A DNA stretch of 32,000 nt from Cupriavidus necator (GTDB lineage: Bacteria > Pseudomonadota > Gammaproteobacteria > Burkholderiales > Burkholderiaceae): the NCBI RefSeq assembly GCF_016127575.1, contig NZ_CP066019.1:1740001-1772000 (forward strand), in the 5' to 3' direction. Positions 7,356 to 30,921 of the stretch are shown here, one piece after another. Numbering within the stretch: position 1 is the first letter of the stretch; the number at the start of each line of letters is the position of its first letter. Under the pieces are notes generated by a model, which worked only from the letters and a program-made list of their open reading frames with translations, searched no databases and was not told the origin of the DNA. Position numbers and translations under genes: made by a program.

Positions 7356-8346
<991 letters not shown>

Positions 8347-8369
<23 letters not shown>

Positions 8370-13190: not shown

Positions 13191-14189
13191 ATGATCTCGA
13201 ACATCATCCGACTCACACGCGGTACCTGCCTTGCAACGCTGTTGTCCGCCCTGCCCCTGTCCGGCGCGCTGGCGGAAGGGGATTGGCCCAACCGCCCCAT
13301 TCGCATCCTCGTCCCAGCTCCGGCGGGAGGCGCATCCGACATGATCGCGCGCACGATTGCGGAAAGCATGCGCCAGAACCTCAAACAATCCGTGGTGGTT
13401 GAGAACAAGCCCGGCGCAGGCGGCATCATTGCCACGGAGGCAATGCTCGCCGCGCCACGCGATGGCTACACATTCGTGCTGTCTCCCAACTCGCTTGTGA
13501 CGGAGAACCCGTACAGCTACAAATTCCGCTTCGATCCGTTCAAGGATCTGGCACCGGTCGCTGAAGTGGCCAGCGTGCCGCTGGTGCTGGTCGCCGACCC
13601 GCGTCTGCCGGTCACCAATGTCAGCGAGATGGTGGCCTACGTGAAGGCACATCCGGGGAAGGTCTCCTATGCGTCCTACAGCCCGGGTACGCTTTCTCAC
13701 ATCAAAGGCATGCAGTTCAACAAGGCGGCCGGGCTGGACATGGAGCACGTCGGCTACAAAGGCTCGCCCCCCGCGCTCACCGACCTGATGGGCGGCCAGA
13801 TTCAGTTCATGTTTGACGGCATGGGCACCGCGCTTGCGCTCGTGAAACCCGGCAAGGTCCGGGCGCTGGCGGTGACATCGGCCGAGCGTTCGCCGTTCCT
13901 GCCCGCTGTGCCGACAATGGCGGAAGCGGGCTACCCAAATCTCAGCCAGATCATGGGCACCAGCGTCTGGTCCACGCCCGACGTGCCAGCTGCCATCCGC
14001 AGCAAGCTGCAGCAGGAGCTAATCAAGGCCGTCTCATCCCCTTCGGTGAAGAGCCAGCTTGCGGCACTTGGAATGAACGCAGGGAGTCCCACACAGACCT
14101 CCGCCGATCTGGAGAAAACGCTCAAGCGGGAGAACGAGCGGACAGGTCAGGCACTGCGTGCCATCAACTACAAGCCCTCCTTGAACTGA
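13191..14189 (+). CDS. Bug-family (TctC-like) tripartite tricarboxylate transporter substrate-binding protein
   Basis: Signal peptide, then WPNRPIRILVPAPAGGASDMIAR ... ENKPGAGG, the canonical Bug-family N-terminus. No tctA/tctB is adjacent, so this is an orphan Bug gene. Confidence 0.9.
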   Translation: MISNIIRLTRGTCLATLLSALPLSGALAEGDWPNRPIRILVPAPAGGASDMIARTIAESMRQNLKQSVVVENKPGAGGIIATEAMLAAPRDGYTFVLSPNSLVTENPYSYKFRFDPFKDLAPVAEVASVPLVLVADPRLPVTNVSEMVAYVKAHPGKVSYASYSPGTLSHIKGMQFNKAAGLDMEHVGYKGSPPALTDLMGGQIQFMFDGMGTALALVKPGKVRALAVTSAERSPFLPAVPTMAEAGYPNLSQIMGTSVWSTPDVPAAIRSKLQQELIKAVSSPSVKSQLAALGMNAGSPTQTSADLEKTLKRENERTGQALRAINYKPSLN

Positions 14190-14669: not shown

Positions 14670-16064
14670 TCAAGCGCTTTCCATGGCTTTCCTGCTCCAG
14701 TCACCCCCTAGCGCCAACAATAGCGCAATGCGCTGGTTGAGATGATCGCCCCTCAGGTGGATCAGATCCATCTCGGCAGCCAGCATTGTCTGCCGAGCCT
14801 TCAGGACGCCGCGCGGATCGGAAGCACCAATGCTAACGCGCGCCTCCTCGCGCTGTACCAATAGCTGGCTCTCGTTCACCCGATCCTGCAGTTGCCTGGT
14901 GCGATCTGCAAGATTCGATTCAGCGCGCAACCCCGCATCGACCTCGCCCAGTGCCTGCAGGGCACTGTTGCCATAGGCGATCATGGCGGCCCTCTGCTCG
15001 GCGCTGTAGTAGTCCGCCCTGGCCTTGAGCTTTCCTCCCGTGAACAACGGCGCGAAGATCGCGCCATTCAGTCCCTTGATCGGAGTGCCGGACTGGTTGA
15101 GCAACAGCACGTCGCTACGGATGCCGGTAATGGCCGCGCTGATTGAAATGCTTGGCAGCCGCGCTGCCTCGGCGGACTGCCTCAGGTCGAAGGCCGCGGC
15201 GACGCGGTGCGCCGCGGCCGTCAAGTCCGGGCGGCGATCAAGCAGGTCTGCAGGCAAGCCTGCCTGCGGGGCTATGGGAATGGCGGGCAACTCCAGCTTC
15301 CCCACACTATTCCCGATTTCCCCGGCAGGATAGCGGCCAAGCAGCAGTTCCAGGGCTTGCGCGGCCTGGCTCCTGGCGAGTTCGGCCTTCCGCAGCGAAT
15401 CCACCTGCGTGCGCAGCGCATTTTTCGCCTCCGCCGGTTCAGTATCCGGCGCCGCACCGATGGCAACCCGCCGCTCGGCGATCTGCACCAGTTGCTCCTG
15501 CACGGCAACGGCTTGCCGCTGCCGGTCTTCCAGCTTTGCGGACCGGATCAGCGTGAACCATGCTTTGGCAGTAGCGGCTGCGACGACGCGCTGCGCCCAG
15601 AGATATTCGTCCGCGGTAGCGGCATACTGGGATTTCGCGGCACACGATTGTGCGCGGATGCGGCCCCAGAGATCGATCTCCCAGCTCGCACCAATCGAAA
15701 GGAACTGGGTTTCCGAATGGCCAGCCCTGCCCTTCACGCCCGCGCTCGGCAACAGGCCGCTGCTTTGCATGGTAACGAGTGCCTGCGCCTGCTCGACGCG
15801 CACCGCTGCAAGCCTGAGATCGCCGTTGTGCGCGATCGCTTCCCGGGCCAGCCGCTGCAGCTCAGCATCGTCGAAGCTTGCAAGCCAGTCGTCCGCGGGC
15901 TCGCCTGCTGCGGCCTCGTTTGCCCAGGTGCGCTGCCCTTCAAGCGCGGGGACCGCCTGGCCTCGAAGGCTGGCGCTATCCGGCGGCGCCTGCAGAGCGC
16001 AGCCAAAGAGCATGGCGAGCGGCACCAGCAGTACCGGAAGAGTCTTGTTGAGAGATGACGACAC
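14670..16064 (-). CDS. efflux outer-membrane factor lipoprotein, NodT family
   Basis: Lipobox LAMLFGC. Two-repeat OEP/TolC-like helical sequence. GTG start at 16064, 10 nt after the HlyD stop. Confidence 0.9.
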   Translation of the reverse strand: MSSSLNKTLPVLLVPLAMLFGCALQAPPDSASLRGQAVPALEGQRTWANEAAAGEPADDWLASFDDAELQRLAREAIAHNGDLRLAAVRVEQAQALVTMQSSGLLPSAGVKGRAGHSETQFLSIGASWEIDLWGRIRAQSCAAKSQYAATADEYLWAQRVVAAATAKAWFTLIRSAKLEDRQRQAVAVQEQLVQIAERRVAIGAAPDTEPAEAKNALRTQVDSLRKAELARSQAAQALELLLGRYPAGEIGNSVGKLELPAIPIAPQAGLPADLLDRRPDLTAAAHRVAAAFDLRQSAEAARLPSISISAAITGIRSDVLLLNQSGTPIKGLNGAIFAPLFTGGKLKARADYYSAEQRAAMIAYGNSALQALGEVDAGLRAESNLADRTRQLQDRVNESQLLVQREEARVSIGASDPRGVLKARQTMLAAEMDLIHLRGDHLNQRIALLLALGGDWSRKAMESA

Positions 16065-16074
16065 AGGCTTGCCT

Positions 16075-17253
16075 TTAATGGAGCTTGAATACCAGATAGT
16101 TCAGCTTGGAACTGACGCGCAGGAAGACCATCCGAACGATATGGAACATCTTCATGTGCGCGGTGTAGATGGCACCCGCGCCGACCGCCCCGACCGGAAG
16201 CATCTGGCCCTTCGATTCGTCGCGCAGGTCCAGCTTGACGGCGAACCGGTTCGGTACGGCTTCCGTGGCAGCAGTGTTCGGAATCATTCCCCCCTGCGCG
16301 AACTGGCCTTGTGATTGCGCCCAGACGATCGAATCCACCCTTGCCTTGATGATTTCACCCGGATGCGTCGGCAGGTAGATCTCGGCGACATCCCCCGCCT
16401 TGACGTTGTATAGCTCGTTCTGCTTGTAGAAGGCGACCACCTCCTGCTCGTCCTCAACGAAGCTGAATGCCGGCGAGAACGGAAACGGGACCAGCATCGT
16501 GCCCACGCGCACCTGCAGGTTCACGACCTTGCCGTCGGCGGGCGCCCGGTACTCGGTTTGGCCAAGTTCCCATCGGGCGTTCTCGAGCATGACTTCGGTT
16601 TCCGCGCGCTTGGCGCGCGCCGTGGCGATGGCGGCGAATTCCCCCTGGCTTTTGGCAGACAGCTTCTGCCTGGCCTCGTCCTCGACGGCTTGAGCGCTGG
16701 CCAGTTCGCCTTCCAGTTCGTGCCGCCGCGCCAGGGCATCTTCCCGGTCAAACTTCGATCCGGCCCCTGCCGCAAGCAGTGCCTCATGTTCCCTGAGCCG
16801 CTGTCGGGCGAGCGACAGCTTGGCCTGTACCGTGGCAACCTTGCCGGCCGCTCCGCGCACGGACTCGCTGAGTTGGCGAGCAACGGCCTGCGCTTCGGCA
16901 AGCGCGGCGTCGTCCGCCATCAACCTGCCCTCAAGTTGCCTGACCGAGGCCTGATAGGGCGTCGGGTCGATGCGCAGCAGGACATCGCCTTTCTTGTAGT
17001 GCCGGTTACCCTCGGCCGGAAGTTCGACAATGCGCCCCCTTACCTGCGGCACCACCTGGAGCACCTTGCCGACCACCCTGACATCATGGGACGAAGGTGC
17101 CACCACGTTCAGCGTCAGGACCAGCAGCGTCAGGGCAACCACCGGAATCGTGACCACGATGACCATGGACGTCGTGTTCCATGGCAGCCATTTGAACTTG
17201 AAGAAGATCAGCCAGACGGCCAGCGCGTAGATAGCAAGCAGCAGCGCATCCAT
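16075..17253 (-). CDS. HlyD-family membrane fusion protein, YiaV-like
   Basis: Two N-terminal hydrophobic segments. Lipoyl-like motif VRGRIVELPAEGNRHYKKGDVLLRIDPTPYQ, long coiled coil, beta-barrel C-terminus. The N-terminus is collinear with E. coli YiaV as I recall it. The ATG abuts the upstream stop (TGAATG). Confidence 0.9.
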   Translation of the reverse strand: MDALLLAIYALAVWLIFFKFKWLPWNTTSMVIVVTIPVVALTLLVLTLNVVAPSSHDVRVVGKVLQVVPQVRGRIVELPAEGNRHYKKGDVLLRIDPTPYQASVRQLEGRLMADDAALAEAQAVARQLSESVRGAAGKVATVQAKLSLARQRLREHEALLAAGAGSKFDREDALARRHELEGELASAQAVEDEARQKLSAKSQGEFAAIATARAKRAETEVMLENARWELGQTEYRAPADGKVVNLQVRVGTMLVPFPFSPAFSFVEDEQEVVAFYKQNELYNVKAGDVAEIYLPTHPGEIIKARVDSIVWAQSQGQFAQGGMIPNTAATEAVPNRFAVKLDLRDESKGQMLPVGAVGAGAIYTAHMKMFHIVRMVFLRVSSKLNYLVFKLH

Positions 17254-17709
17254 TCAGCTCTGCTCCCCTGCGCCGGACGTAGCGCCGCGTGCCGGCGCCC
17301 GCAGGGACGCGACGTTCCCGGGCCGGCCGATGGGGGCATGTGCCGCGCCTCGCGCCGCTTCGTCTTCCGGTAGTTTGTCGGTGCCATAGGCCGCCCGGTA
17401 GAACACCGGCTTGGTGTGTGCCCAGAGCCAGGCCATCGGCCACAGCAGTCCGCCGAAGAAGAGCGAAAGCAGGCATAGCGCATGGATGGCTTCCCTTTGC
17501 GGATGCTGCTTCCGGTGGGCGACCTTATCCGGCCAGATATGCAGCATCCAGAACAGGTAGATGGCTGCGAGCGGCACGAATATCATCACCACCCAGGAGA
17601 TGGCATTGGCGGCGCTCTCGAGGGCCTTTCCGCTGAGGAAGGAGGCGAACGCTGGTTCATGCATTGCCAGCAGGCCAAGGCCCGCCAGCAGATATTGACG
17701 CAGTTTCAT
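17254..17709 (-). CDS. DUF3302 (YiaW-like) inner-membrane protein
   Basis: The block IYLFWMLHIWPDKVAHRKQHPQREAIHALCLLSLFFGGLLWPMAWLWA parallels E. coli YiaW (ILHDIPYLIAKKRNHPHADAIHVAGWVSLF..WPFLWIWA). I prefer the internal ATG at 17709 over the GTG at 17733. Confidence 0.8.
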   Translation of the reverse strand: MKLRQYLLAGLGLLAMHEPAFASFLSGKALESAANAISWVVMIFVPLAAIYLFWMLHIWPDKVAHRKQHPQREAIHALCLLSLFFGGLLWPMAWLWAHTKPVFYRAAYGTDKLPEDEAARGAAHAPIGRPGNVASLRAPARGATSGAGEQS

Positions 17710-17778
17710 CGGGGAAATAGAGAGATAGGGCACCAGGGCCCGGTGTTTGACTTGCCAGGTACTCGGTCGCGTTGAGAA

Positions 17779-19315: not shown

Positions 19316-22309
19316 TTAGAAGGCCAGCGGACGAGAACCGCAGGCGACCTCGTTCTCACCACGCCCGCGCTCGCATACGCTCATCAGGCCTTGAGCGATG
19401 AAGGCGGACTGCAGTTCGATCTCATCGTCCCAGCGTTTGGCTTCAGCCACGTGGCCGTGCAGGTCAGCGCAGAGTTCGGACAGTCCTGAGCGCCCCACGA
19501 CCCCGAGCGTCCCCGCGATTCGATGCAGCAGCCGTTCCAGGTGGCGGATGTCTCGCGCTGCCCGGACCGCCTCGAATTCGTTCAGGTCCACCATGGTCTG
19601 CGCCAGGAACGCTTCGGCGTATTCTTCGGCGACCGACGGCAGCTCAGGCAGATCGTCATCGGTTAGCAGCACTGGCGCCGCCCCATCATCCGTACGTGGC
19701 GGGTCGGCCTTGGCGGCAACAGCATCGAGCACCGAAGCCAGCGTCGCCAGCGACACCGGTTTCGTGAGATAGCCGGTAAATCCGCTTGCCAGCCCCTCGG
19801 TAACATCCTTCGGTCTCGCGCTTGCGCTTACGGCATAGACAGGTATCTCCGGCCAGCACCGCCTGATTTCACGAAGCAGGTCGAATCCATTCATTACGGG
19901 CATGTCCACATCCGTCAGCACTGCATGCACGCCCTGTTCCGACAACACTGCCAGGGCCTCGTTGCCGTTGCCTGCTTCGATAACGCTCGCACCTAACAGG
20001 TGAAGCTGGTCGCGCAGCAGTTTCCTGTTCAGCAGATTGTCTTCCGCGACCAACACGGAAAGGCCCGCGAACGGCGCTGCGGACTGATCGTGTATGGCAG
20101 CCACGACACGATCTTCGTCGACAAGCCTGGTCTCCGGAGCATTATTGAGGACCGCCTGTGCAGCGGCATGGATACCGGCCAGGCTGTAGGCAGACACCTC
20201 CCGGCTGCCATCCGGCCGTATGGTCGGGACGAGCGGGCCCAGTTGCTTGAGCCATACGATAGTGGCGGGGTTCCGCCACCACGCCATGACTTGGGCCGGA
20301 TCCAAGGACTCGGTCACGAGCAGGCAGTCGAACCTGTCCCCGTCAATGGGCTCGTCGATGCTGGAACGAAAAAATGGCTGTGATGATCCCCAGTCGAAAT
20401 GGTTCAGCATTCCTTCGAGGCACTCTGGCTCACGGGACAGGACCAGCGCGCGGCGCGGCGCCAGGCGCCATTGCGCCGGGGTCTGATGCCCGCCCGGCGG
20501 GCTGAGCGGCAGGCGAACCGTGACGCGCGTGCCAACGCCTAGTACGCTGTCCAGCGTGATACGTCCGTTCATCCGCTCCACCAGCCGCATGCAGATTGAC
20601 AGTCCAAGCCCGGTCCCGCCGGCCTGCGCGAGACGATTGTTGCCGATCTGGGAGAATGGCTGAAACAGCCGTTCCTTATACTCCTCCGGTATGCCAACGC
20701 CGGTATCGGTGATGACGATCTCAAGGTTTTCATCCACCCATTGCGCGCGCAGGACAATCTTCCCCGCCTCGGTGAATTTGAACGCGTTACCAAGCAGGTT
20801 GTTGATGATCTGTGTCAGGCGCACCGGGTCAAGATTGAGCCGCGCCGGAATCTCCTTGCCATACACCGCGAAGAAGCTCAGCCCACGCCGCGCCGCAAGC
20901 GGCGCGTGCGAGATTGCAATGCGACCCAGGAGTTCCGTGACGACGACAGGCTCCTCCGCAAGACGCATCGCTCCCACGTCGAGCTTCGAAAAATCGAGCA
21001 CGTCATTGACGATCTGCAGCAACCCTTCGGCCGACACCTGCATGGAGCTTACCCGCGCCCGCTGCTCCGGCTCCAGCCTACCGAGGGCCACGAGCTCCAT
21101 GTTTCCCAGCAGCGAGGAAAGCGGCGTCCGTATCTCGTGGCTCATCGAAGCAAAGAACGCCACCTTGGCCTTGGCCGCAGCCTCGCTGGCAAGTCTCGCT
21201 TCGTGCAACAGCTGCTGTGCGCGTGCCGCTTCGGCATATGTGCCGGTCAGGAAGCGATAGTTCCAGTATCGATACATCGCGAATAGCAAGGCGAGAAGCG
21301 CGGCCGTAATCAGGCCGGTAACGAGCAGTTCCTCCCGCATTTCCCGGAACTGCTGCCCTAGCGGCAGTGCGAAGACCAGGTGGCCGAAATCCGCAATGAG
21401 CGGCGGGCGCCGCAGGGCCCATCCATAGTCCTGGACCCAATGAAACAGCCCCTCCGGAAGTCCCTCCAGCCTGGCGTCCAGGCGCCGTGCGTTGGCCCGT
21501 GCACCTGAAGCAACCAGTGGCGTGCCCAGGCGATCGACGACAATTGGCTCCGGGATCGACAAGGTCGGCCAGGCTGGCCGAAGCAAGTCTTGCAGCGGGA
21601 TCCGCGTCAACACGATGGCGTAGAGTGCGTCGCCTTTCGCGACCAGCGATGCGCCAACCATCTCCGGACTCCCTCCGGCTGCATTCGCCGGGATGCCCAG
21701 CCATACGACACGCTTCTCCCGCGCTGCCTGCAAGAGATCCATGTCGCGGCTCTGGAACCGCTCAAGAATCATCGTGGTGATGCTTGACGACGACAGCGGC
21801 GGAAGGGTCGCAGCCACGCCGAATCCCGATGCGTCGGGCGCTTCATACCGATACGTCGCCCCGTTCGCAATCGAGATCATTTCGATCGAAGGCTTCTGGC
21901 TTGCGGCAGTCAGCGTCCGGACAGCCTGGTCGCAACTCTGCTCCAACACCGGATCGGGAGGCGCAGACGGAGACACCTGTGTGCATAGACTGCCGGCATG
22001 CCCGCGCTGCGCCACGGGGACTTTGCCATTGCTGCGCAACTCAAGGATCAGGTTCGTCGCCGTCAGGGTGCTGCGGCGTTCGAGCACCGCATCGACGACG
22101 CCCTGCTCGTACAGGCGCGCGACCTGCTCCTGGGCGCGCAGGGATTCATTCAGGCGGGCAAGCATGGCTGCCGAAGCGATCGCGATGGCGACCAGCCCCA
22201 GCAGCAGGACCACCATCGAGAACACACGGCGCTCCCGCTGCAGATTCCGCTCAACCGAGTGATCGGCGTGTAGTGGCGATTGCTGCGAGCGCTCGCGCTC
22301 TTCCTGCAT
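19316..22309 (-). CDS. hybrid sensor histidine kinase (periplasmic sensor, HisKA, HATPase, degenerate receiver-like insert, REC, Hpt)
   Basis: TM1 MVVLLLGLVAIAIASAAML, then about 280 aa of periplasmic sequence, then TM2 LLVTGLITAALLALLFAMY. H-box SHEIRTPL, N-box NLLGNAFKFT, G-boxes DTGVGI and GTGLGLSI. REC VLVAEDN...AVLTDVDMPVMNG...LTKP. Hpt HRIAGTLGVVG. The ATG overlaps the regulator stop by 1 nt. Confidence 0.9.
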   Translation of the reverse strand: MQEERERSQQSPLHADHSVERNLQRERRVFSMVVLLLGLVAIAIASAAMLARLNESLRAQEQVARLYEQGVVDAVLERRSTLTATNLILELRSNGKVPVAQRGHAGSLCTQVSPSAPPDPVLEQSCDQAVRTLTAASQKPSIEMISIANGATYRYEAPDASGFGVAATLPPLSSSSITTMILERFQSRDMDLLQAAREKRVVWLGIPANAAGGSPEMVGASLVAKGDALYAIVLTRIPLQDLLRPAWPTLSIPEPIVVDRLGTPLVASGARANARRLDARLEGLPEGLFHWVQDYGWALRRPPLIADFGHLVFALPLGQQFREMREELLVTGLITAALLALLFAMYRYWNYRFLTGTYAEAARAQQLLHEARLASEAAAKAKVAFFASMSHEIRTPLSSLLGNMELVALGRLEPEQRARVSSMQVSAEGLLQIVNDVLDFSKLDVGAMRLAEEPVVVTELLGRIAISHAPLAARRGLSFFAVYGKEIPARLNLDPVRLTQIINNLLGNAFKFTEAGKIVLRAQWVDENLEIVITDTGVGIPEEYKERLFQPFSQIGNNRLAQAGGTGLGLSICMRLVERMNGRITLDSVLGVGTRVTVRLPLSPPGGHQTPAQWRLAPRRALVLSREPECLEGMLNHFDWGSSQPFFRSSIDEPIDGDRFDCLLVTESLDPAQVMAWWRNPATIVWLKQLGPLVPTIRPDGSREVSAYSLAGIHAAAQAVLNNAPETRLVDEDRVVAAIHDQSAAPFAGLSVLVAEDNLLNRKLLRDQLHLLGASVIEAGNGNEALAVLSEQGVHAVLTDVDMPVMNGFDLLREIRRCWPEIPVYAVSASARPKDVTEGLASGFTGYLTKPVSLATLASVLDAVAAKADPPRTDDGAAPVLLTDDDLPELPSVAEEYAEAFLAQTMVDLNEFEAVRAARDIRHLERLLHRIAGTLGVVGRSGLSELCADLHGHVAEAKRWDDEIELQSAFIAQGLMSVCERGRGENEVACGSRPLAF

Positions 22310-22959
22310 CAGGTAAGACCGTTGTCGCGTGCGTACGTGACAAGGTCCGCATTAGTGGTGATATTCAGCTTGCGCATTGCCGAGCGCTTCTGCGTCGCAA
22401 TGGTAGCGAGCGATCGATGGAGATATCCCGCGATTTCCGTGAGAGTGCTGCCAGTCGCGAACATCCGCACAACTTCGATCTCCCGCGGGGACAGCGGGCT
22501 TGCCGTGCCGTTGACCAACGCCCCCGCACTTGACATCCTGGCCGCTATGCCCGGTGACAGGCGCTGGCCAGTACCTGTTATTGCATCGACACAGATTTGC
22601 CTCAGGATGCCCGGCTCCTCGTTCTTCCCGACGATGGCCGCAACGCCCATCTCCTTGATGCGCGTGAGCAGTCCGCCATTGGTCAACATCGTGAAAACCA
22701 CGATCGGTGTATGTGGACGCGACTGCCTGAGCCGGTGGACCAGCCGAAGACCGTCATCATTGACGTGGGAACGCTCCATCGTGAAATCGGTGACGATAAG
22801 GTCAGGTTGTTGCGTTTGTAGCGCCGCAAAGAGCTCTTTTCCTGACGAGCATATTGCGGAAATCCGGACATTCGGGATCTCGCTCAAGGTGGCCTTGACT
22901 GCGAGTTGAATTACCGGGTGATCGTCTGCGATGACGACGGAGATGACAGGTGGCGGCAT
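22309..22959 (-). CDS. LuxR/NarL-family response regulator
   Basis: REC VVIADDHPVIQ...DLIVTDFTM...; C-terminal LuxR HTH LSPREIEVVRMFATGSTLTEIAGYLHRSLATIATQKRSAMRKL. I prefer the internal ATG at 22959 over the TTG at 23076. Confidence 0.9.
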   Translation of the reverse strand: MPPPVISVVIADDHPVIQLAVKATLSEIPNVRISAICSSGKELFAALQTQQPDLIVTDFTMERSHVNDDGLRLVHRLRQSRPHTPIVVFTMLTNGGLLTRIKEMGVAAIVGKNEEPGILRQICVDAITGTGQRLSPGIAARMSSAGALVNGTASPLSPREIEVVRMFATGSTLTEIAGYLHRSLATIATQKRSAMRKLNITTNADLVTYARDNGLT

Positions 22960-23269
22960 GCGCGTTAACTCAGACCGGCAGCACGCTTGTATGGATCGGG
23001 GCGACGTGCCCAACCGGCGGAACTGGCTGCATAGGGCACCGGATTCTACCAAGGGGCACTCACCTTCATTTGACAAAATGGGACATATATTTGGCTGATC
23101 GTCCCACGCGGAGTAATCGTACTGCGTCCCAGTCCAAAGCTCTTCCAGGCGCGATTCCTGTCTAACCGAGCACGCGAGGAGCTAGCGCAAAGGGCACGCG
23201 TTCATATAGATCACGTCAAGCGGAAGACATCACAGCAAGAGGCTTGCACCTGGCACTACTCTCGCTGCC

Positions 23270-23806
23270 CTAAAGCGCAAGCGTCACCACGCGCAGCGTG
23301 GCATCGTCTGGACACGCTAAATCGGCAAATCCAAAACGTTTAGCCAGTCGCCGCATGGCGGTATTCGACGACAAAACATAGCCTTCCATGCATCGATAGC
23401 CGCGGCTCCGAGCGATGTCGATCAGTGTGCCCAGCAGTCGGCTGGCCAGGCCGAGTCGATGCCAGTCATCGGCGACAGTCACCGCAAACTCGCAGGTATC
23501 GCTACCCGGCGCGGCGGCGTAGCGTGCGCCACCCACAATAGACGACACCTTGTTTTCCGTGGCAAGCGCTACCAGCGCAAACTCGCGCTCAGCCGACGGA
23601 TGCGTCGCTTGCTCGAGCATCGCTTCCGGCAGCTGTTGCATGGCAGCCATGAATCTGGCGTAACGCGCATCGGCAGAAAGTCTGTTAAATGCCGCTAACA
23701 GGCCGACCTTGTCGTCTTCGGTAATCTCCCGCACCAGCACTTCCCGTCCGTCGCACAGGGGCACGTTGTACGGGACGAAGTTTGTCACGTCAGACTTGGC
23801 TTGCAT
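23270..23806 (-). CDS. GNAT-family N-acetyltransferase, Pat-type GNAT domain standing alone
   Basis: VREITEDDKVGLLAAFNRLSADARYARF ... CEFAVTVADDWHRLGLASRLLGTLIDIARSRGY ... VLSSNTAMRRLAKRFGF is collinear with the C-terminal GNAT domain of Pat/PatZ-type protein acetyltransferases. Confidence 0.8.
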   Translation of the reverse strand: MQAKSDVTNFVPYNVPLCDGREVLVREITEDDKVGLLAAFNRLSADARYARFMAAMQQLPEAMLEQATHPSAEREFALVALATENKVSSIVGGARYAAAPGSDTCEFAVTVADDWHRLGLASRLLGTLIDIARSRGYRCMEGYVLSSNTAMRRLAKRFGFADLACPDDATLRVVTLAL

Positions 23807-24093
23807 GGCAACGGAGTCGTAAGGAATGAAAGCGAGCTCGTTGAATCACTCCCCCGCAGCATTTGATAATAGCTGATCCGGCGCAGTTTTCCCGATATCG
23901 AACATAGACGATTACGCACGACATCGCCGCCATCGAGCCGTATTGTCGCGCCAGTCCGACCGGAATCAATTTGCCCCCCGGTCTCCGCTACGAGCGCCTA
24001 GAATGCTGGGTGAGCCAAGACTCACAGAAGCTCGAATGGAAGTCGTTTCCGTGCCAAAGGTCCAAACACACATAATGAACTGAGGAGAGCGAC

Positions 24094-24456
24094 ATGACCG
24101 TGCGCAAATTGCCAGCAGTTGGTTTCGCAGTCCTGATGGGACTGATTTCTATAGGCGCGGCCGCCCAGCCGGCACAAGGATCCCAACAGGGAGCGGCGCC
24201 AGCCGAGGTGCCGAAAGCTCCCCCGACTACGGCCCAGGCCAAGGCTCTGATTGCCGAGCGATTCAAGGCTGCCGATTCCAATCATGACGGCAAGCTGACT
24301 CGTGACGAAGCTCAGGCGGGAATGCCAAAGGTCTACGAAAGTTTCGACAAGATCGACGTAAAAAAACAGGGTCACGTCACCGAGCGCCAGATCGGTTCCT
24401 ATTGGATGAAGAAGACCAAGGATCAGATGCAGAAGGAAGATCCGATCTGGAACTGA
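24094..24456 (+). CDS. secreted EF-hand calcium-binding protein
   Basis: GAGGAGAG SD. Signal peptide ending IGAAAQP. Canonical EF loop DSNHDGKLTRDE (24274..24309) plus a degenerate second loop DVKKQGHVTERQ. Confidence 0.75.
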   Translation: MTVRKLPAVGFAVLMGLISIGAAAQPAQGSQQGAAPAEVPKAPPTTAQAKALIAERFKAADSNHDGKLTRDEAQAGMPKVYESFDKIDVKKQGHVTERQIGSYWMKKTKDQMQKEDPIWN

Positions 24457-24775
24457 AGGAGTTGCAGCAATTCCTTGTACTGCTCATGGAATGATGGGGC
24501 GGGAGAAATAGAGTCGTACCTCTTGCCCCTTGAGGGCCTTGAGAGCGAGGCTGCCAGTCGGGGCTCCCAAACCTCGATGCCATGGCAAGGCATCATGCAT
24601 CCCCTCTTGAACCGGCTGGATGAGCCTTGTGCCGTCAACCCACTTTAGTTTCCTCGTGGAACCTTGGCTGGCTGATACGTTCACGCATAGTGGTCGCCCG
24701 ATGCCCGACGACTGAGTGCCGGCTAGACTCCGAGCGCCGCCCTTTTCCTCCCGCGATGTCAACGAGCGCTGCGTT

Positions 24776-25558
24776 TCACGCCATGATATTGACGCCGCCA
24801 TCCACATACAGCGTTTCGCCCGACAGCCGCCGGGCGTAAGGCGTGGCCAGGAAGGCGCAGGTGTATCCCACATCCATAATATCGACCAGCTCGCCAAGTG
24901 GAGCGCGTTCCACAGCGTCAGCAAGCATCAAATCGAAGCTCTTAAGCCCGGACGCAGCGCGGGTCTGCAGCGGCCCGGGCGAGATCGCATGCACGCGAAT
25001 GCCGCGCGGGCCCAACTCGTACGCCAGGTAGCGTGATACGGCTTCCAGGGCGGCTTTCACCGGGCCCATGACGTTGTAGTTCGGCACCACCTTGTTGGCG
25101 CCGTGATAGCTCATGGTGAACATCGTGCCACCATCGCCCATCAGGGGCGCTGCCAGCCGGGCCATGCGCACGAAGGAGTGGCAGGACACATCCATGGCCT
25201 TGGCGAAGCCTTCGGCCGAACAATTGAGCAGGCCGCCCTGCAGATCGTCTTTCGGCGCCCAGGCCACCGAATGCACCAGGATATCGAGCTTTCCCCACTG
25301 CTCCCCGATCCGCGCAAACAACTCGTCCATTTCCTTCTGGCTCGTGACATCCAGGGGGAGGAAGATGGAAGCGTCAAGCTCCTGCGCCACCGGCTCGACA
25401 AACTGGCGCGCCTTTTCGCTGGCATAGGTAATCGCCACCTCGGCACCCAGTTCGCGGAAGGCCTTGGCGCACCCGTAAGCAATGGAGTGCTCGTTCGCAA
25501 TCCCGCAGACGAGTGCGCGGGCGTTGGCGAGGATAGGCAGTTGTTGCGCTGCAGTCAT
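24776..25558 (-). CDS. fabI: enoyl-[ACP] reductase, FabI type (SDR)
   Basis: ALVCGIANEHSIAYGCAKAF, the Y-x6-K motif in YNVMGPVKAALE, and AISPGPLQTRAASG. ATG at 25558 with AGGAGAG upstream. The upstream in-frame extension of the ORF was rejected. Confidence 0.9.
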   Translation of the reverse strand: MTAAQQLPILANARALVCGIANEHSIAYGCAKAFRELGAEVAITYASEKARQFVEPVAQELDASIFLPLDVTSQKEMDELFARIGEQWGKLDILVHSVAWAPKDDLQGGLLNCSAEGFAKAMDVSCHSFVRMARLAAPLMGDGGTMFTMSYHGANKVVPNYNVMGPVKAALEAVSRYLAYELGPRGIRVHAISPGPLQTRAASGLKSFDLMLADAVERAPLGELVDIMDVGYTCAFLATPYARRLSGETLYVDGGVNIMA

Positions 25559-25634
25559 GTCACTCTCTCCTGGATTCATTGTTGCCAGCGAGCGGTCGCT
25601 ACCATGCCGCTGGCTTGGTCGGCTGTAGCGGTGG

Positions 25635-26825
25635 TCATCGAGCGGGTGCCGCCAGGACCTCCCGGGTATGCCTGGCAATCATCAGTTCCTCGTTGGTCGG
25701 GATGACCCAGACCGGGACATTGCCCGAGGCTAAGCTGATGCGCGGTCCGTCGCTGGCGTTCGCCGCGGGATCGACACTCACCCCCAGCCATGCCGCCAGC
25801 CGGCATACGCGCTCGCGGATCGGCGCGGCATGCTCGCCGATGCCAGCGGTGAAGACCAGCGCGTCCAGCCCCTGTGCGGCGGCGGCCAGCGAACCAAGCT
25901 CCCGGGCGACGCGGTACGTGTACAGTTCGACGGCAAAACGGGCCTGCACATCGTCGCTGGCGAGCAGCGCGCGCATGTCGCTCGACAGGCCGGAGACGCC
26001 AAGCAGACCGGATTTTCGATAGATCAGGTCCTCGATGGCGCGGGCATCCATGCCGAGTTCGCTGATCAGGTAGAGGATGACGCCCGGATCGAGGCTGCCG
26101 CAGCGAGTTCCCATCGGCAGGCCATCCACCGCAGTGAAGCCCATCGTGCTGGCCACGCTGCGCCCCGCCACCAGCGCACACATGCTGCTGCCGTTGCCGA
26201 GGTGGGCCACGATCGTGCGGCCCGCCGCTGCACCCGCATCAACGCTCGGGAGGACACTGGCGATGTACTCATAGGACAGTCCGTGGAAGCCGTAGCGCCT
26301 GACGCCGCGCGCGCTGATCTCCGCGGGCAATGCGAATGCCTGTGCCACTTCCGGCTGCGCCCGGTGGAAGGCGGTGTCGAAGCAGACTACTTGGGGCAGT
26401 TCCGGGCGCCTCTCGGCAAGGATGCGGATCGGTTTGAGGTTGTGTGGCTGGTGCAGGGGTGCGAGCGGGCATAGCGAGTCCAACTCTGCCAGTAGCGCGT
26501 CGGTCACCCTTTCCGGCTGGGTGAAGCGTACCCCGCCGTGCACCACCCGGTGCCCGACCGCGCTCAGCGTATGCCCTTCCCCATGGCCGCGCAGGAAGTC
26601 CGCCAGGAAGGCAATGGCACCCTCGTGCCCGAGCGTGGTACCGGCATCCCACCGCCTGGTCTCGACCTCAGCGCCCAAGGCGTCGGTGGCGTGGAATGCC
26701 GGTGCCGCGTAGAGACCTTCGATGCTCCCGCGCAGCACCAGCCTCAGTGCATCGTCATGGGTATTGTAAGCACAGTACTTGATGCTCGACGAACCCGCAT
26801 TCAGGACCAGGATCAGTTCGGCCAT
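25635..26825 (-). CDS. ackA: acetate/propionate-family kinase
   Basis: ILVLNAGSSSIKY N-terminus, VGHRVVHGG, RRYGFHGLSY, IVAHLGNGSS, FTAGIGEH: canonical AckA blocks. Starts 4 nt after the upstream stop. Confidence 0.9.
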   Translation of the reverse strand: MAELILVLNAGSSSIKYCAYNTHDDALRLVLRGSIEGLYAAPAFHATDALGAEVETRRWDAGTTLGHEGAIAFLADFLRGHGEGHTLSAVGHRVVHGGVRFTQPERVTDALLAELDSLCPLAPLHQPHNLKPIRILAERRPELPQVVCFDTAFHRAQPEVAQAFALPAEISARGVRRYGFHGLSYEYIASVLPSVDAGAAAGRTIVAHLGNGSSMCALVAGRSVASTMGFTAVDGLPMGTRCGSLDPGVILYLISELGMDARAIEDLIYRKSGLLGVSGLSSDMRALLASDDVQARFAVELYTYRVARELGSLAAAAQGLDALVFTAGIGEHAAPIRERVCRLAAWLGVSVDPAANASDGPRISLASGNVPVWVIPTNEELMIARHTREVLAAPAR

Positions 26826-26829
26826 GGCA

Positions 26830-27768
26830 TCACCCCGCCACCTGGCCGGACTCGCGGCGTGCCTTGGCCACCAGCGCGGCCACCGCGCACGACGCCAGCC
26901 GGGTCATGACCGAGTCGGCACGGCTGGTCAGGATGATGGGCACGCGCGCGCCCAGCACGATGCCTGCGGCGTCGGCGCCGGCCAGGAAGGTCAGGCTCTT
27001 GGCGAGCATGTTGCCGGCGTCCAGGTCAGGCACCAGCAGGACATTGGCGCGCCCGGCCACCGGTGAGTCGATCTTCTTGATCCGCGCCGCGTCCAGGTTG
27101 ATCGCGTTGTCCAGCGCAAGCGGTCCGTCGACGATCGCGCCGGTGATCTGGTGGCGGTCGACCATCTTGCACAGCGCGGCGGCATCCAGTGTGGACGGAA
27201 CCATCGGGTTGACGGTCTCCATCGCCGACAGGATCGCCACGCGGACCTCCTTGACCTGCAAGGCATGGGCCAGGTCGATCGCGTTTTGCAGGATGCCGGC
27301 CTTCTCGGCAAGCGTCGGGGCAATATTGACGGCAGCGTCGGTGATGATCAGAGCGTCCTCGTGGCCGGGCACATCCATCACGAAGCAGTGGCTGATGCGC
27401 CGGCCGGTGCGCAAGCCGCTGTTACCCGCGACCACGGCTCCCATCAGCTCATCGGTGTGCAGACTGCCCTTCATCAGAGCCTCTGCCTTGCTTTCGCGCA
27501 CCAGTTGCACTGCGGCAGCCGCCGCCGCATGGCTGTGCTCGGCATCGACAATCGGGTACTCGCGGATGTCAATGCCGGCCGCGCGCGCGGCGTCCTCGAT
27601 GCGGGAACGCGGCCCAACCAGGATCGGCGCGATCAGGCCCAGCCGGGCGGCCTCTACGGCGCCTTCCAGCGAAGACTGGTCGCACGGATGCGCCACCGCG
27701 GTCGGTGTAGGCGGCATGGCCTTGCAGTAATCAATCAGGCGCTGGTACTTCTCATGCTTGGCGTTCAC
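26830..27768 (-). CDS. short PTA_PTB-family phosphotransacylase (phosphate acetyl/butyryl-transferase)
   Basis: 312 aa with no N-terminal P-loop/DRTGG extension. The block VLLVPDLDAGNMLAKSL..GADAAGIVLGARVPIILTSRADS is typical of the family. GTG start with AGGAG 6 nt upstream. Confidence 0.85.
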   Translation of the reverse strand: MNAKHEKYQRLIDYCKAMPPTPTAVAHPCDQSSLEGAVEAARLGLIAPILVGPRSRIEDAARAAGIDIREYPIVDAEHSHAAAAAAVQLVRESKAEALMKGSLHTDELMGAVVAGNSGLRTGRRISHCFVMDVPGHEDALIITDAAVNIAPTLAEKAGILQNAIDLAHALQVKEVRVAILSAMETVNPMVPSTLDAAALCKMVDRHQITGAIVDGPLALDNAINLDAARIKKIDSPVAGRANVLLVPDLDAGNMLAKSLTFLAGADAAGIVLGARVPIILTSRADSVMTRLASCAVAALVAKARRESGQVAG

Positions 27769-27833
27769 GGGCTACTCCTGCGTCAGGGTCGTCGGTGTCG
27801 GTCGGCTGCGAGGCCTGTGCCAGCCGCGGCGCG

Positions 27834-30155
27834 CTAGGACGCGCGGGTGAGCGGCGCGGCCGCGCCGCGGACGCGTTCCGGCTTGGCGCCGAGCGCCGTG
27901 CGGATCCGCTCCAGCATTGCCGTCTGCTCGACAGTGGGCCTGGCGCCAAGCAGGCGCTCATCGACACGCAGCTTCTCCGCCAGCGCCTGCAGCCGCTGGC
28001 GGTCGGCCTGATACCTGAGCAAGGCCGGCAGCGTCGCGAGCGCCTGTTCGGGCGCGTACCGCGTGATCAGCTCCTGCCTGCCGCGGATCTCGCGCCAGGC
28101 GTCCGGCTCAAGTTCCGGCAGCAGATCGGCGTAGTCCGTGACCAGCTCCTTGCGCAGCTCCAGCCTGGACAGCGGCAGGGGCTCACCCCTGCGGCTCAGC
28201 AGGCAGGCCAGCCGGGCAATGGCCTCGGCGTATCCGCCTTGCCCGACCGCGGCCAGCGCCGCTTTGACTTCCGGCAGGTCATGCGGGTCGGTCGCCGCCG
28301 GGGTACCCGCGCGGGCGGTAGGCTCGCTCCTTGGCTGGAACGGGAACAGGTTGGCGTACACGTTGAAAAAGGTGTATTCGGTCATCGCATCGCGCACGGC
28401 CCGGTATGCGTCCAAACCGGCGCTGAGCATTTCCGCGCCCACCTGCTCTTGCTGCCGCAGCGGATGATCCGGTTCCAACGTTTGCCGGCTGGCCCGGACC
28501 GCGTCGGCGGCGGGCTTCAACCATGCCATCCACGGATTCAGGTCCGAGAACAGCCAGTTCTGCATGCGTAGCGGATGGAATTCGCGCAGCACCCGTGCTG
28601 TCATCTCATTGGACACCGCCTGGACGTAAGGCTGCGCAAACAGCTCGTAGGCGCGCTGCGTGAAGTCCGACAGGTTGGCGACCGTCTCGAACGGCTTCTC
28701 GTCGGCGCGCTCAAAGCGGTTAAGCCTGCTGGCGATTTCCTCGAGCGAGTGCTCCTCGAACTGGACCTCATAGTCCACGCCATCGCTACCCTTGCGCTCA
28801 TGGATGACCATGCCGTAGAGCCCAGGCGGCAGCAGTTCGATGCTCTTGAGCACCGAGACGATCTGTGCGTGCTCCTTCTGCGCGACCTTGCCGGAGACGA
28901 AGATGCCGAGATGGCCGACGCTCCGGTGCATCATGCCGACAATGACCTGGCCGCGAGCCTTGATCTCCTCGGTACTGCCGTAGATGTCCACCACCCAGTT
29001 GAATGCCTGCTGCGGCGGCGTGATGTTGTCGCCCATCGAGGCAAACAAAACGATGGGCGAGCGGATCTCGCGCAGATCGAACGCCTTGCCGCCGGCGTTC
29101 TTGACTTCACCACCCCACAGCTTGTTGCCGACGAACAGGTTGCGCGTGATCCATTCGATCTCCTCGCGGTTCATCAGGTAGTAGCCACCCCACCAGCGTT
29201 CGAACTCAAGAAAGCGCGGCGGCTCGGTATCGGCCTTCTTGTACAGGTTGTAGTACTTGTCCCAGAGACTGTTGGACGGATTCAGGTTTTCGAAATTTTG
29301 TACCAACCAGGCGCCGTCAAACTTGCCGTTGCCGAGATCCGCCGTATACGACGCCAACCACGTGCCGCCCAGGAGCCCGCCGGAATAGCGCATCGGGTTG
29401 TCGCCTTCGCCCTCGCTCCAGGCACCGCTCCAGTACGACATCGGCGCGCCGTTGATCACGATCGGCCCGGTGTCGCCCGGGTCCGAGGCGCCGAGCATCA
29501 TCGCAGCCCAGCCGCCTTGGCAATTGCCGATGATGGCTGGCTTGGCGCTGTGTGGATGCAGTTCACGCACTCTCTTGATGAACTGTTGCTCGGCCTCGCA
29601 CACGTCCAGCAGGGTCTGTCCCGGCTCGGGATCGCGGAAGAAGATGACAAAATACACAGGATGGCCGGCACGCATTGCCACGCCGACCTGCGAGTCGTCC
29701 TTGAAACCGCCGATGCCCGGGCCATGGCCGGCACGCGGATCGATGATGACGTAAGGGCGGCGGCTATCATCGATCGTCACGCCATCGGGCGGGATAATTT
29801 TCAACAGCGCGTAGTTGACGGGCCGTTCGAACTGGCGGGCATCCAGAACGGTCTCGTAGCCAAAATGCAGGACCGGCTTGAGCCCCTGCATGGTGTTTTC
29901 GACAAAGTTGTTGCCCCGTTGCCTGAGCGTGTCCCAGAACAGGATGGCACGCTGCATGCTGTCGATGGCATAGGCATAGCTGCTCATCGGATCCATGCCG
30001 GCCATCGGGTTGATCGGGCCGGCGCCCGGCTCCCCAACGGCTTGCTGCACGCGGCCACTAAAGGCCTCCTGCGCATTCTTCAGGCGCTTTTGCAGCACCA
30101 TGCCGGTCTTGAGGCCAACTTCACGCGCGTGCACCAGTTGCTTTGCTGCATCCAT
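27834..30155 (-). CDS. DUF3141-type protein; alpha/beta hydrolase with a PHA-synthase-like Cys-Asp-His triad plus a ~340-aa helical C-terminal region
   Basis: GNCQGG nucleophile elbow (29511..29528), SMGDNITPP (Asp codon 29028..29030), SVGHLGIFVSG (His codon 28911..28913). I prefer the ATG at 30155 with GGAGA 5 nt upstream over the TTG at 30194. Confidence 0.85.
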   Translation of the reverse strand: MDAAKQLVHAREVGLKTGMVLQKRLKNAQEAFSGRVQQAVGEPGAGPINPMAGMDPMSSYAYAIDSMQRAILFWDTLRQRGNNFVENTMQGLKPVLHFGYETVLDARQFERPVNYALLKIIPPDGVTIDDSRRPYVIIDPRAGHGPGIGGFKDDSQVGVAMRAGHPVYFVIFFRDPEPGQTLLDVCEAEQQFIKRVRELHPHSAKPAIIGNCQGGWAAMMLGASDPGDTGPIVINGAPMSYWSGAWSEGEGDNPMRYSGGLLGGTWLASYTADLGNGKFDGAWLVQNFENLNPSNSLWDKYYNLYKKADTEPPRFLEFERWWGGYYLMNREEIEWITRNLFVGNKLWGGEVKNAGGKAFDLREIRSPIVLFASMGDNITPPQQAFNWVVDIYGSTEEIKARGQVIVGMMHRSVGHLGIFVSGKVAQKEHAQIVSVLKSIELLPPGLYGMVIHERKGSDGVDYEVQFEEHSLEEIASRLNRFERADEKPFETVANLSDFTQRAYELFAQPYVQAVSNEMTARVLREFHPLRMQNWLFSDLNPWMAWLKPAADAVRASRQTLEPDHPLRQQEQVGAEMLSAGLDAYRAVRDAMTEYTFFNVYANLFPFQPRSEPTARAGTPAATDPHDLPEVKAALAAVGQGGYAEAIARLACLLSRRGEPLPLSRLELRKELVTDYADLLPELEPDAWREIRGRQELITRYAPEQALATLPALLRYQADRQRLQALAEKLRVDERLLGARPTVEQTAMLERIRTALGAKPERVRGAAAPLTRAS

Positions 30156-30399
30156 GCCGTTCTCCGCTGCGAATCTTGTGACACGGTTGGCCAAGCGTGG
30201 TAGCCCAGCCCCCGATGTGCATCTTGCTTCGAACTATAGCGTCGACCTTGGTCGCAATAGAACTGAATCTTTTCGGACGATGAGATAAGAAGGATTTCTT
30301 TCCAGGACGGCAGGATGAATGACCATATCCTATTGGACTCTGCGTGCGCTATGCTGAACTGGCGCGGCGCACACACCGCGGACCCGCTGGAGAACGATC

Positions 30400-30921
30400 A
30401 TGCGTTATCGCCTGCCCGCCTGCGTGACTGTCACAGTGGCGGCCCTTGTGCTGGGCGCCTGTGCCACTCTCCGGCCCCTGGAAACCGCAGAGGGCATGCT
30501 CGGCGGCCCGCAGCATGCCGTGCGCGATACGTTCGGCGCTCCCACGGAAACCTACCAGCTCGCTGATGGCACCACTCGGTGGATTTATTCGAAACAGCCG
30601 CTCGGCTTCGAAGTCTACGCGGCAGACTTTGACGCCAACGGCAAGCTTACGAGCTTTCGGCAGATGCTGACCGAGAAAGAAATCTACGAGGCACGCCCGG
30701 GGGTCTGGACCAAGCAGGATATTGCCGAGCGCTTTGGCCGTCCGCGCGAGCCCATCGAGTACTACCCGCTGATGAAGCGCGAGGCCTGGTCTTACCGGCT
30801 CTATGCGGGCGCCTACATGCCAGCGCATTTCAGTGCCTACTTTGACGAACGCGGCGTGCTCGACCGGACCATGATCATCGTCGATGCGATCGGCGGCGAC
30901 ACGCGAGACGGCAGCAAGTAA
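30400..30921 (+). CDS. lipoprotein, possibly BamE/SmpA-OmlA-like (two repeats)
   Basis: Lipobox VLGAC. GGAGA SD. High GC3. Two 'xxVxxxFGxPxE'-type segments (HAVRDTFGAPTE and KQDIAERFGRPRE). Confidence 0.65.
   Translation: MRYRLPACVTVTVAALVLGACATLRPLETAEGMLGGPQHAVRDTFGAPTETYQLADGTTRWIYSKQPLGFEVYAADFDANGKLTSFRQMLTEKEIYEARPGVWTKQDIAERFGRPREPIEYYPLMKREAWSYRLYAGAYMPAHFSAYFDERGVLDRTMIIVDAIGGDTRDGSK

Follow-up and report, generated by a model that had tools for sequence, protein, structure and literature searches.

A conserved DUF3141-pta-ackA-fabI operon of Cupriavidus necator as a candidate energy and redox module linked to polyhydroxyalkanoate metabolism

We analyzed a stretch of 32,000 nucleotides (nt) from Cupriavidus necator (contig NZ_CP066019.1, positions 1,740,001 to 1,772,000; hereafter the window), which contains four co-directional, tightly spaced genes on the minus strand for a DUF3141 protein, a phosphotransacylase (Pta), an acyl kinase (AckA) and an enoyl reductase (FabI). 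These genes may constitute an operon that couples polyhydroxyalkanoate (PHA) to the formation of ATP. The first gene, encoding the DUF3141 protein (27834..30155; 773 amino acids, aa), starts with ATG and is preceded by the Shine-Dalgarno sequence GGAGAA. It is followed by pta (26830..27768; 312 aa, GTG start, Shine-Dalgarno sequence AGGAG), by ackA (25635..26825; 396 aa), whose ATG lies 4 nt past the pta stop codon (TGAtgccATG), and by fabI (24776..25558; 260 aa, ATG start, Shine-Dalgarno sequence AGGAGAG). The open reading frame (ORF) calls and translations gave gaps of 65, 4 and 76 nt between the genes. Strand, coordinates and spacing were thus as claimed in a preliminary description of this DNA, and the gene identities proposed there agreed with the Pfam and NCBIfam matches reported below. 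The same gene order exists in Sinorhizobium meliloti (locus L001 of our survey).

The 4-nt gap suggests that pta and ackA are translationally coupled. A scan for intrinsic terminators did not disclose terminator-like sites in the three intergenic gaps, and by an inverted-repeat search no terminator was found downstream of fabI. Both genes flanking the operon reside on the opposite strand. Upstream, the boundary is formed by a divergent lipoprotein gene (30400..30921, plus strand), and downstream by a gene for a small secreted EF-hand protein (24094..24456, plus strand), which is convergent with fabI. Short gaps, the lack of internal terminator-like sites and the orientation of the flanking genes are consistent with co-transcription of the four genes. 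Genes for fatty acid synthesis (acp, fabD/G/F/Z, acc) are absent from the 32-kb window, and this fabI copy accordingly resides outside a fatty-acid-synthesis context, as had been supposed. Two peculiarities of the region may be mentioned. An ORF of 542 codons without family support runs antisense within the DUF3141 gene (28575-30203, plus strand) and is most likely an artefact of the high GC content. The GC content itself is about 0.58 over positions 23000-25000 of the window and 0.65-0.68 within the operon.

The product of the first gene matched PF11339 (DUF3141) with 876 bits (cutoff 29.7; E 1.6e-263) over profile positions 1-575 of 582. This was its sole Pfam match. PhaC_N, Abhydrolase and PHB_depo_C (PF06850) did not match at E<=10, nor did any further Pfam domain at the same threshold when the N- and C-terminal regions were searched in isolation. 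The curated PhaC models of class I/III (TIGR01838, TIGR01836) gave weak hits only, far under their cutoffs (25.6 bits, cutoff 622; 34 bits, cutoff 365). Since these models failed and since PhaC_N and PHB_depo_C are absent, we did not class the protein as a PhaC or PhaZ enzyme.

Its sequence contains the nucleophile box G210-N-C212-Q-G214, D376 within the motif S-x-G-D-N-I-T-P-P and H415 within G-H-L-G. C212, D376 and H415 were invariant across 38 close homologues (alignment A1), and in 36 diverse representatives (alignment A2; 31-64% identity) their conservation was still 90% or higher. A profile search of the PDB sequences yielded the PHA synthase 9knj as the only match (E 0.014), the matching segment ending at the catalytic Asp. 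A first AlphaFold model based on the 38 close homologues was poor (predicted local distance difference test, pLDDT, 64.6). The diverse alignment was used instead and gave an AlphaFold2 model with a pLDDT of 88.5 and a predicted template-modelling (TM) score of 0.89. When this model was compared with the PDB by Foldseek, the top 14 matches were all PHA synthases (E 7e-9 to 5e-7), among them the enzymes of A. caviae (9knj/k/l), C. necator (PhaC1, 5hz2/5t6o) and Chromobacterium (5xav/6k3c), whereas generic esterases appeared at E values of at least 2.8e-6. The best match had a target-normalised TM-score of 0.64 and a root-mean-square deviation of 4.2 over 351 columns. In the model, helices are located at the N-terminus and an extra helical domain of about 290 aa at the C-terminus. 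Judged by the modelled fold, the DUF3141 protein is a distant relative of PhaC with an alpha/beta-hydrolase fold and a predicted Cys-Asp-His triad. With this triad and PhaC as the closest solved fold, the proposal that the large protein is PhaC-like was upheld. The DUF3141 family comprised 743 clusters at 50% identity (E<=1e-30), and the few papers mentioning it treat it as a PhaC-related domain only.

The pta product is of the short Pta/Ptb type. It matched PF01515 (PTA_PTB) with 148 bits (E 4.6e-43) and NF008852 (PRK11890) with 537.5 bits, the cutoff of the latter being 413, and it scored higher with Ptb models (about 300-315 bits) than with the classical Pta model TIGR00651 (80 bits). The kinase matched PF00871 (Acetate_kinase) with 352 bits (E 3.4e-105) and TIGR00016 with 341.7 bits (cutoff 293.4); by these profiles, it is an acyl kinase of the acetate/propionate family. 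FabI gave a match to adh_short_C2 (E 1.6e-85) and passed NF005717 (PRK07533; 444 bits, cutoff 337) as the sole FabI equivalog model, all the remaining ones being far below their cutoffs, which places it in a FabI clade of its own. Its catalytic Tyr-x6-Lys is intact, as Y161 and K168 align with Y156 and K163 of the E. coli enzyme. FabI is about 45% identical to every solved FabI and roughly equidistant from them, the housekeeping FabI of Burkholderia (3ek2) being less similar than the E. coli enzyme.

Differences were found at the surface of the protein that would have to contact the acyl carrier protein (ACP). In E. coli FabI, K201, R204 and K205 reportedly form the basic ACP-docking patch (Rafi et al. 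2006). The position of R204 is occupied by Asp in all five operon-type FabIs that were aligned, and the position of K205 by Leu, Ala, Glu, Lys and Leu. Because these residues are not conserved, because genes for fatty acid synthesis are missing in the neighbourhood and because some copies of the module lie on plasmids (see below), the operon FabI is probably a non-housekeeping reductase acting on enoyl-coenzyme A (CoA) substrates, e.g., crotonyl-CoA. A second fabI presumably exists on chromosome 1 of C. necator strain H16.

To survey the distribution of the gene arrangement, one genome per species was scanned. This gave 80 loci whose DUF3141 products were 45-92% identical to that of the window, and their neighbours were determined by tblastn. 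Partners were counted within 8 kb at the 52 species-level loci that had at least 5 kb of sequence on both sides of the DUF3141 gene. At least one of the partners Pta, Ack and FabI was present at 45 of the 52 loci (87%), Pta together with Ack at 37 (71%) and all three at 31 (60%). Individually, Pta was found at 43/52, Ack at 38/52 and FabI at 36/52 loci. The module occurs with shuffled gene order in Cupriavidus, Ralstonia, Caballeronia, Sinorhizobium, Methylorubrum, Microvirga, Azotobacter, Thiodictyon and others. The order DUF3141-pta-ack-fabI is shared by S. meliloti, Caballeronia sp. RPE67 and R. solanacearum. Microvirga exhibits pta-ack-DUF3141-fabI, Thiodictyon syntrophicum [PhaJ-Pta fusion]-ack-fabI-DUF3141, and a 60-kb mobilizable plasmid of Methylorubrum populi fabI-DUF3141-[PhaJ-Pta]-ack. 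Some other Cupriavidus possess a paralogous module on chromosome-1-like contigs (L083, L086, L092), in which ack and pta are divergent from DUF3141-fabI and the DUF3141 protein is 46-47% identical. Should H16 harbor it as well, this redundancy could mask the phenotypes of single mutants.

Synteny thus extends far beyond close relatives into Alpha-, Beta- and Gammaproteobacteria and several lineages of metagenome-assembled genomes, in support of the preliminary description, and the adjacency is not a product of chance. The opposite assumption would be that the genes are neighbours without joint function, FabI being the housekeeping enoyl-ACP reductase and the DUF3141 protein an unrelated hydrolase beside pta-ackA. 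It could refer to the fact that FabI passes an NCBIfam FabI equivalog with its catalytic Tyr and Lys kept. The survey, however, largely refutes it, as the four genes have stayed together, albeit in rearranged order, on mobilizable plasmids and in members of three proteobacterial classes, and a complete paralogous module exists on chromosome 1 of other Cupriavidus. The lack of conserved ACP-docking residues, the tight spacing, the separate ribosome-binding sites and the 4-nt pta-ack junction likewise speak against it. We regard a chance arrangement as highly improbable.

Additional genes were repeatedly encountered at the loci. A MaoC/PhaJ hydratase domain was fused to Pta in 10 of the 43 loci with Pta, and a CoA-transferase gene was inserted between ack and fabI in five to six loci. 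PPK2 was located near the module in 10/52 loci and a SulP transporter in eight (recurrent PPK2/SulP loci include L012, L014, L015, L019, L027, L038, L068 and L073). A phoU gene lies near the Thiodictyon copy (L003). These PPK2, SulP and phoU neighbours, which are absent from the window, hint at a connection with phosphate and energy reserves. Short DUF3141 forms (about 550-610 aa), in which the C-terminal helical domain is missing, were found on plasmids of Legionella anisa (L005) and Acidovorax (L006), in both cases without Pta or Ack. In Legionella, phbB lies nearby and a FabI homologue (56% identity) is encoded about 4 kb upstream of the DUF3141 gene, while the Acidovorax gene sits in a heavy-metal resistance island.

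The DUF3141 protein of the window is identical to CAJ96417.1 of C. necator (Ralstonia eutropha) H16, encoded on chromosome 2 (AM260480.1, 1842398..1844719, minus strand). The neighbours there, namely pta, ack, fabI and an upstream gene of 173 aa, are those of the window, which corresponds to about 1814565-1846564 of AM260480.1. In databases, CAJ96417.1 is named 'DUF3141 domain-containing protein' or 'Poly-beta-hydroxybutyrate synthase'. It is probably H16_B1632, with pta, ackA and fabI being B1631-B1629, an assignment based on the chromosomal position and on accession arithmetic.

The promoter/leader region of the operon (30156..30399, minus strand) is shared with the divergent lipoprotein gene. 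The sequence and an alignment of three to four Cupriavidus sequences (A3) showed that only about 35 nt before the DUF3141 ATG are conserved (..TTGGC.CC.TGTCACAGAATT..AGCGGAGAACGGCATG). This leader (30156-30200, minus strand), which can also be written ..TTGGC.CC.TGTCACAGAATT..AGCGGAGAACGG, includes TGTCACA. No recognisable operator was found in it, and none of the regulator consensus sequences tested matched. A sigma-54 -24/-12 motif within the leader failed on spacing when checked by eye, a sigma-70 consensus was not found upstream of the operon, and the scan of its intergenic regions for such promoters gave nothing informative. Typical partners of a low-oxygen regulon (universal stress protein, adh, phaB) are not encoded in the window. 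For related clusters, published work indicates inducers connected with growth arrest, namely phosphate limitation and low oxygen.

What might the four enzymes accomplish together? In different taxa, the FabI/(PhaJ-)Pta/Ack trio is paired either with a canonical PhaC or with DUF3141, and the simplest reading is therefore that DUF3141 plays a PhaC-like role where polymer and 3-hydroxyacyl-CoA meet. From gene content, predicted fold, catalytic residues and synteny we infer which substrates are used, which way the flux runs and what induces the genes, as follows. At the granule of polyhydroxybutyrate (PHB), the DUF3141 protein would form an acyl-S-Cys212 intermediate and swap 3-hydroxybutyryl units between the polymer and CoA. 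Under energy limitation it would run as a CoA-dependent thiolysis, converting PHB to (R)-3-hydroxybutyryl-CoA (3HB-CoA). PhaJ, which is fused to Pta in many relatives and would be needed as a separate protein in H16, would then generate crotonyl-CoA, which the FabI-type reductase could reduce to butyryl-CoA with re-oxidation of NADH. The Ptb-like Pta would convert butyryl-CoA and acetyl-CoA to the acyl-phosphates, from which the Ack-family kinase would produce ATP and butyrate or acetate. In a parallel branch, 3HB-CoA may be oxidised to two acetyl-CoA and further processed to acetate and ATP by the same Pta and Ack, balancing redox. As a net result, the stored polyester or a 3HB-CoA pool would provide substrate-level ATP and an electron sink during growth arrest caused by oxygen or phosphate limitation.

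Since the NADH-dependent reduction of enoyl substrates is effectively irreversible for thermodynamic reasons, only the polymer-to-acid direction makes use of every activity of the module, and the path from polymer or 3HB-CoA via crotonyl-CoA, butyryl-CoA and acyl-phosphate to acid and ATP is the only linear route in which all of them take part. The PhaJ-Pta fusions, which by their domain content would supply the step from 3HB-CoA to crotonyl-CoA, support this route, as does the location of the trio beside canonical PhaC in Burkholderia and Halomonadaceae. The CoA-transferase inserts and PPK2 neighbours, as predicted from their families, fit a short-chain acyl-CoA metabolism and the energy-reserve theme. 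We assign a probability of about 0.5 to the reading that the four genes are one operon representing a conserved PHA-linked energy and redox module, which leads from acyl-CoA to ATP in the polymer-to-acid direction. In essence this is the hypothesis of the preliminary description, whose interpretation was thus supported in part.

The same enzymes have also to be considered in the synthetic direction. In that case Ack and Pta would activate acetate, the DUF3141 protein would be an alternative PHA synthase and PhaJ and FabI would shape the monomers, e.g., by reverse beta-oxidation from crotonyl-CoA via butyryl-CoA to C6 units (3HB-co-3HHx, the copolymer of 3-hydroxybutyrate and 3-hydroxyhexanoate), the polymer serving as an electron sink at low oxygen or nutrient levels. 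PhaC is the closest fold, the triad is identical and one of the database names is that of a PHB synthase. Moreover, phosphate limitation, the inducer of the S. meliloti operon (see below), is a classic condition for PHB accumulation. On the other hand, H16 lacking phaC1 is reported to be PHB-negative although the DUF3141 gene is present, and deletion of B1632 reportedly affected the mobilisation of PHB and not its accumulation. The DUF3141 protein stays far under the cutoffs of the PhaC models and has no PhaC_N, a phaA/phaB-type partner is missing beside the module in L001-L088 except for the Legionella short form, and the CoA-transferase insert and the Ptb-like Pta/Ack better fit acid production. 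In favour of synthesis, functional PhaC1 accompanied by the same trio is known from Halomonas/Cobetia, for which the authors discussed a route from acetate to PHA (PMC8686332), and acetate feeding PHA with the polymer as an electron sink was proposed in PMC8231600 and PMC3721108. Taken together, we consider the synthetic direction rather doubtful.

Several points weigh against the conversion of polymer into acid and ATP. The window Pta lacks a PhaJ/MaoC domain. Apart from the copy beside the Legionella short form, phaB was not found next to the module at the other surveyed loci (L001-L088), and neither phaZ nor a phasin family recurred among the neighbouring ORF clusters, in which no search was aimed at them. 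FNR/Anr boxes (TTGAT-N4-ATCAA-like) are absent from 30156-30399, and matches throughout the window were at chance level. PHO boxes were scanned for with the E. coli consensus CTGTCAT-N4-CTGTCAT and up to three mismatches. None was found upstream of the DUF3141 gene, but the same scan remained blank at the PhoB-dependent S. meliloti locus as well, so that this consensus is an unreliable detector and the result is evidence neither way. Pta and Ack are reversible enzymes, and acetate assimilation is equally possible for these two steps. Furthermore, we know of no report on the excretion of butyrate by C. necator. In 2015, Sznajder, Pfeiffer and Jendrossek reportedly detected H16_B1632 and A0671, alpha/beta hydrolases with a PHB synthase/depolymerase signature, on PHB granules, which speaks for the route, whereas the defect in PHB mobilisation upon their deletion was small, a minor phenotype. 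The activities measured for such a module are those of an acetyl-type Pta and Ack only, determined in S. meliloti as far as the accounts in PMC8231600 and PMC5789663 go. According to the same accounts of the study by Summers, Denton and McDermott (1999), the S. meliloti ORF-pta-ack-fabI genes are co-transcribed and induced by phosphate starvation in a PhoB-dependent manner, a signal not obviously predicted by our model. The idea that the operon operates 'when respiration fails', put forward in the preliminary description, found no support in the window sequence: neither an FNR/Anr nor a PHO box was found upstream, and the S. meliloti operon responds, as documented, to phosphate starvation.

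The induction by phosphate starvation could mean that the genes have no relation to PHA and form a module for phosphate stress or acetyl-phosphate, in which Pta and Ack tune acetyl-phosphate, ATP and phosphate under PhoB, while the DUF3141 protein would be a thiol-esterase or acyltransferase for another lipid or thioester and FabI would remodel membrane fatty acids. The induction reported for S. meliloti is in line with this, as are the PPK2 genes at 10 of the 52 loci and the phoU and phytase-like genes near the Thiodictyon copy. About 1 kb away from the H16 copy, a gene product matched PF00497 (SBP_bac_3), with only a faint match to phosphonate-binding proteins. Against such a module stand the lack of a match to the E. 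coli PHO-box consensus, an unreliable detector, both here and in the S. meliloti locus, the PhaC fold as the nearest one, the replacement of DUF3141 by canonical PhaC in other taxa, the PhaJ fusions and the CoA-transferase, which indicate C4 acyl-CoA chemistry, and the reported presence of the protein on PHB granules. A role apart from PHA therefore appears unlikely to us, and the polymer-to-acid direction remains our preferred interpretation.

A more far-reaching version of the polymer-to-acid route can be suggested tentatively. The DUF3141 protein could possibly be the entry enzyme of an unrecognised polyester fermentation in obligately respiring proteobacteria, by which PHB is converted to butyrate or acetate and ATP with internal redox balance. 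PHB would be cleaved by CoA or, conceivably, by phosphate, giving 3-hydroxybutyryl-phosphate directly. If true, such a fermentation would explain survival supported by PHB without respiration or under phosphate limitation. PHB is the textbook carbon store of bacteria, and C. necator H16 is the model organism of PHB research and an industrial production strain. In any case, a widespread module joins a PhaC-like enzyme to the sole enzymes of substrate-level phosphorylation in its neighbourhood. Should the proposed chemistry hold, a function could be assigned to a large DUF family and the 'extra' copies of FabI and Pta/Ack in Burkholderia, Ralstonia, rhizobia and Halomonas would be explained. It would also tie PHB to persistence under hypoxia and phosphate stress, with a bearing on Burkholderia infection and nodulation competitiveness, and it would offer an engineering handle on the loss of PHB and on the formation of butyrate or C6 monomers.

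Besides the operon, the window contains genes for a lipocalin of the CrtC type, an ABC system of the MacB type, MoxR, DUF58 and VWA proteins, TctC and a BKACE (beta-keto acid cleavage enzyme) protein. A regulator of the AraC family, an efflux trio, a GNAT acetyltransferase and a hybrid histidine kinase paired with a LuxR-type regulator are encoded as well. The gene for the GNAT protein (23270..23806, minus strand; PF00583 match) is separated from fabI by the convergent EF-hand gene and does not belong to the transcription unit of the operon. A GNAT of this type was found within 8 kb of the module in 7/52 loci, and an N-acetyltransferase gene adjoins the Thiodictyon module, so that GNAT may be a loosely associated regulatory or accessory partner. 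The two-component pair and the EF-hand gene of the window, however, were beside the DUF3141 module at none of the 80 loci. This pair (19316-23076, minus strand) consists of a hybrid histidine kinase of 997 aa (HisKA-HATPase-REC-Hpt) and a LuxR/GerE-type response regulator, whose genes overlap by 1 nt. At 5256-10427, genes for a MoxR AAA ATPase, a DUF58 protein and two VWA/BatA proteins constitute a Bat/MoxR-type cluster, accompanied by an ORF for a trypsin-like protease; ORF calls on both strands overlap around 5256-7343. An AraC-family regulator gene, divergent from the BKACE gene, and a gene for a TctC-family solute receptor follow at 10659-14189 and may represent a small catabolic unit. Positions 14670-17733 (minus strand) harbor an efflux-type trio comprising a DUF3302 protein, an HlyD-like membrane-fusion protein and an outer-membrane efflux protein (OEP).

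Among the systems with which the operon can be compared, the closest one is that of S. meliloti. It comprises the same four families in the same order, and its orfA was confirmed to be a DUF3141 gene. The products are about 46% (DUF3141), 65% (Pta), 52% (Ack) and 56% (FabI) identical to those of the window. The S. meliloti operon differs in that it resides on a megaplasmid of an alphaproteobacterium, encodes a shorter OrfA (738 aa) and is controlled by PhoB, whereas a PHO box is not detectable upstream of the window copy by a consensus that is blank in S. meliloti, too. The preliminary description had seen in the operon a candidate for an undescribed system. This cannot be maintained, since the orfA-pta-ackA-fabI operon was published in 1999, as cited in later papers, and since the present copy resides in the well-studied and fully annotated model genome of H16. 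As the outcome of a genome scan, the operon is a rediscovery of a known type. Orthologous sets of four genes in Burkholderia phymatum and Rhizobium mesoamericanum are induced by root exudates (PMC5789663).

More distant relatives contain a canonical synthase. A review on Burkholderia sensu lato lists phaC-pta-ack-fabI and phaC/(phaJ-pta)/ackA clusters (PMC8231600), and in the lxa locus of B. cenocepacia a class I phaC, phaB, a phosphate acetyl/butyryl transferase and an acetate kinase were upregulated 75-242 fold at low oxygen (PMC3721108). These lxa and 'group D' clusters resemble the window operon in combining a PhaC-type enzyme with a Pta/Ptb-type transacylase and acetate kinase, in group D2 plus FabI. 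The lxa locus, however, is induced by low oxygen and linked to anoxic persistence and includes a canonical class I PhaC, phaB, alcohol dehydrogenases and universal stress proteins, while the window operon contains DUF3141, none of those partners and no low-oxygen motif that we could find. In Halomonas/Cobetia, the genes that come after a canonical phaC1 are fabI, a PhaJ-Pta fusion gene and ackA (PMC8686332). Trio and fusion are the same as in many DUF3141 modules, but the synthase is a canonical functional PhaC1 and the window Pta is unfused. Class I PhaC and DUF3141 have the G-x-C-x-G nucleophile elbow, the Cys-Asp-His triad and a helical N-terminal region in common. Their identity amounts to only 13-18%, and DUF3141 lacks PhaC_N and carries about 290 additional aa as a helical domain at its C-terminus.

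With regard to the proposed reaction, the nearest precedent is PhaZa1 of R. eutropha, for which Uchino and coworkers reportedly observed CoA-dependent thiolysis of PHB on granules in 2007. PhaZa1 is likewise an alpha/beta hydrolase with a Cys nucleophile that can release 3HB-CoA on granules, the very reaction proposed for DUF3141; it belongs to the PHB_depo_C family (PF06850), whereas the DUF3141 protein did not match that model. Native PHB granules of R. eutropha H16 yielded crotonyl-CoA together with 3HB-CoA in vitro, according to the citation of Eggers and Steinbuchel (2013) in PMC4823750. Finally, the butyrate branch of clostridia (crotonyl-CoA reduction, Ptb, Buk) follows the same logic, an NADH sink preceding an ATP-yielding pair of transacylase and kinase. 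Clostridia employ Bcd-Etf and Buk for this purpose, whereas the window encodes a FabI-type reductase, an AckA-family kinase and a Pta leaning towards Ptb, its host is an aerobe and the carbon would be drawn from a storage polyester.

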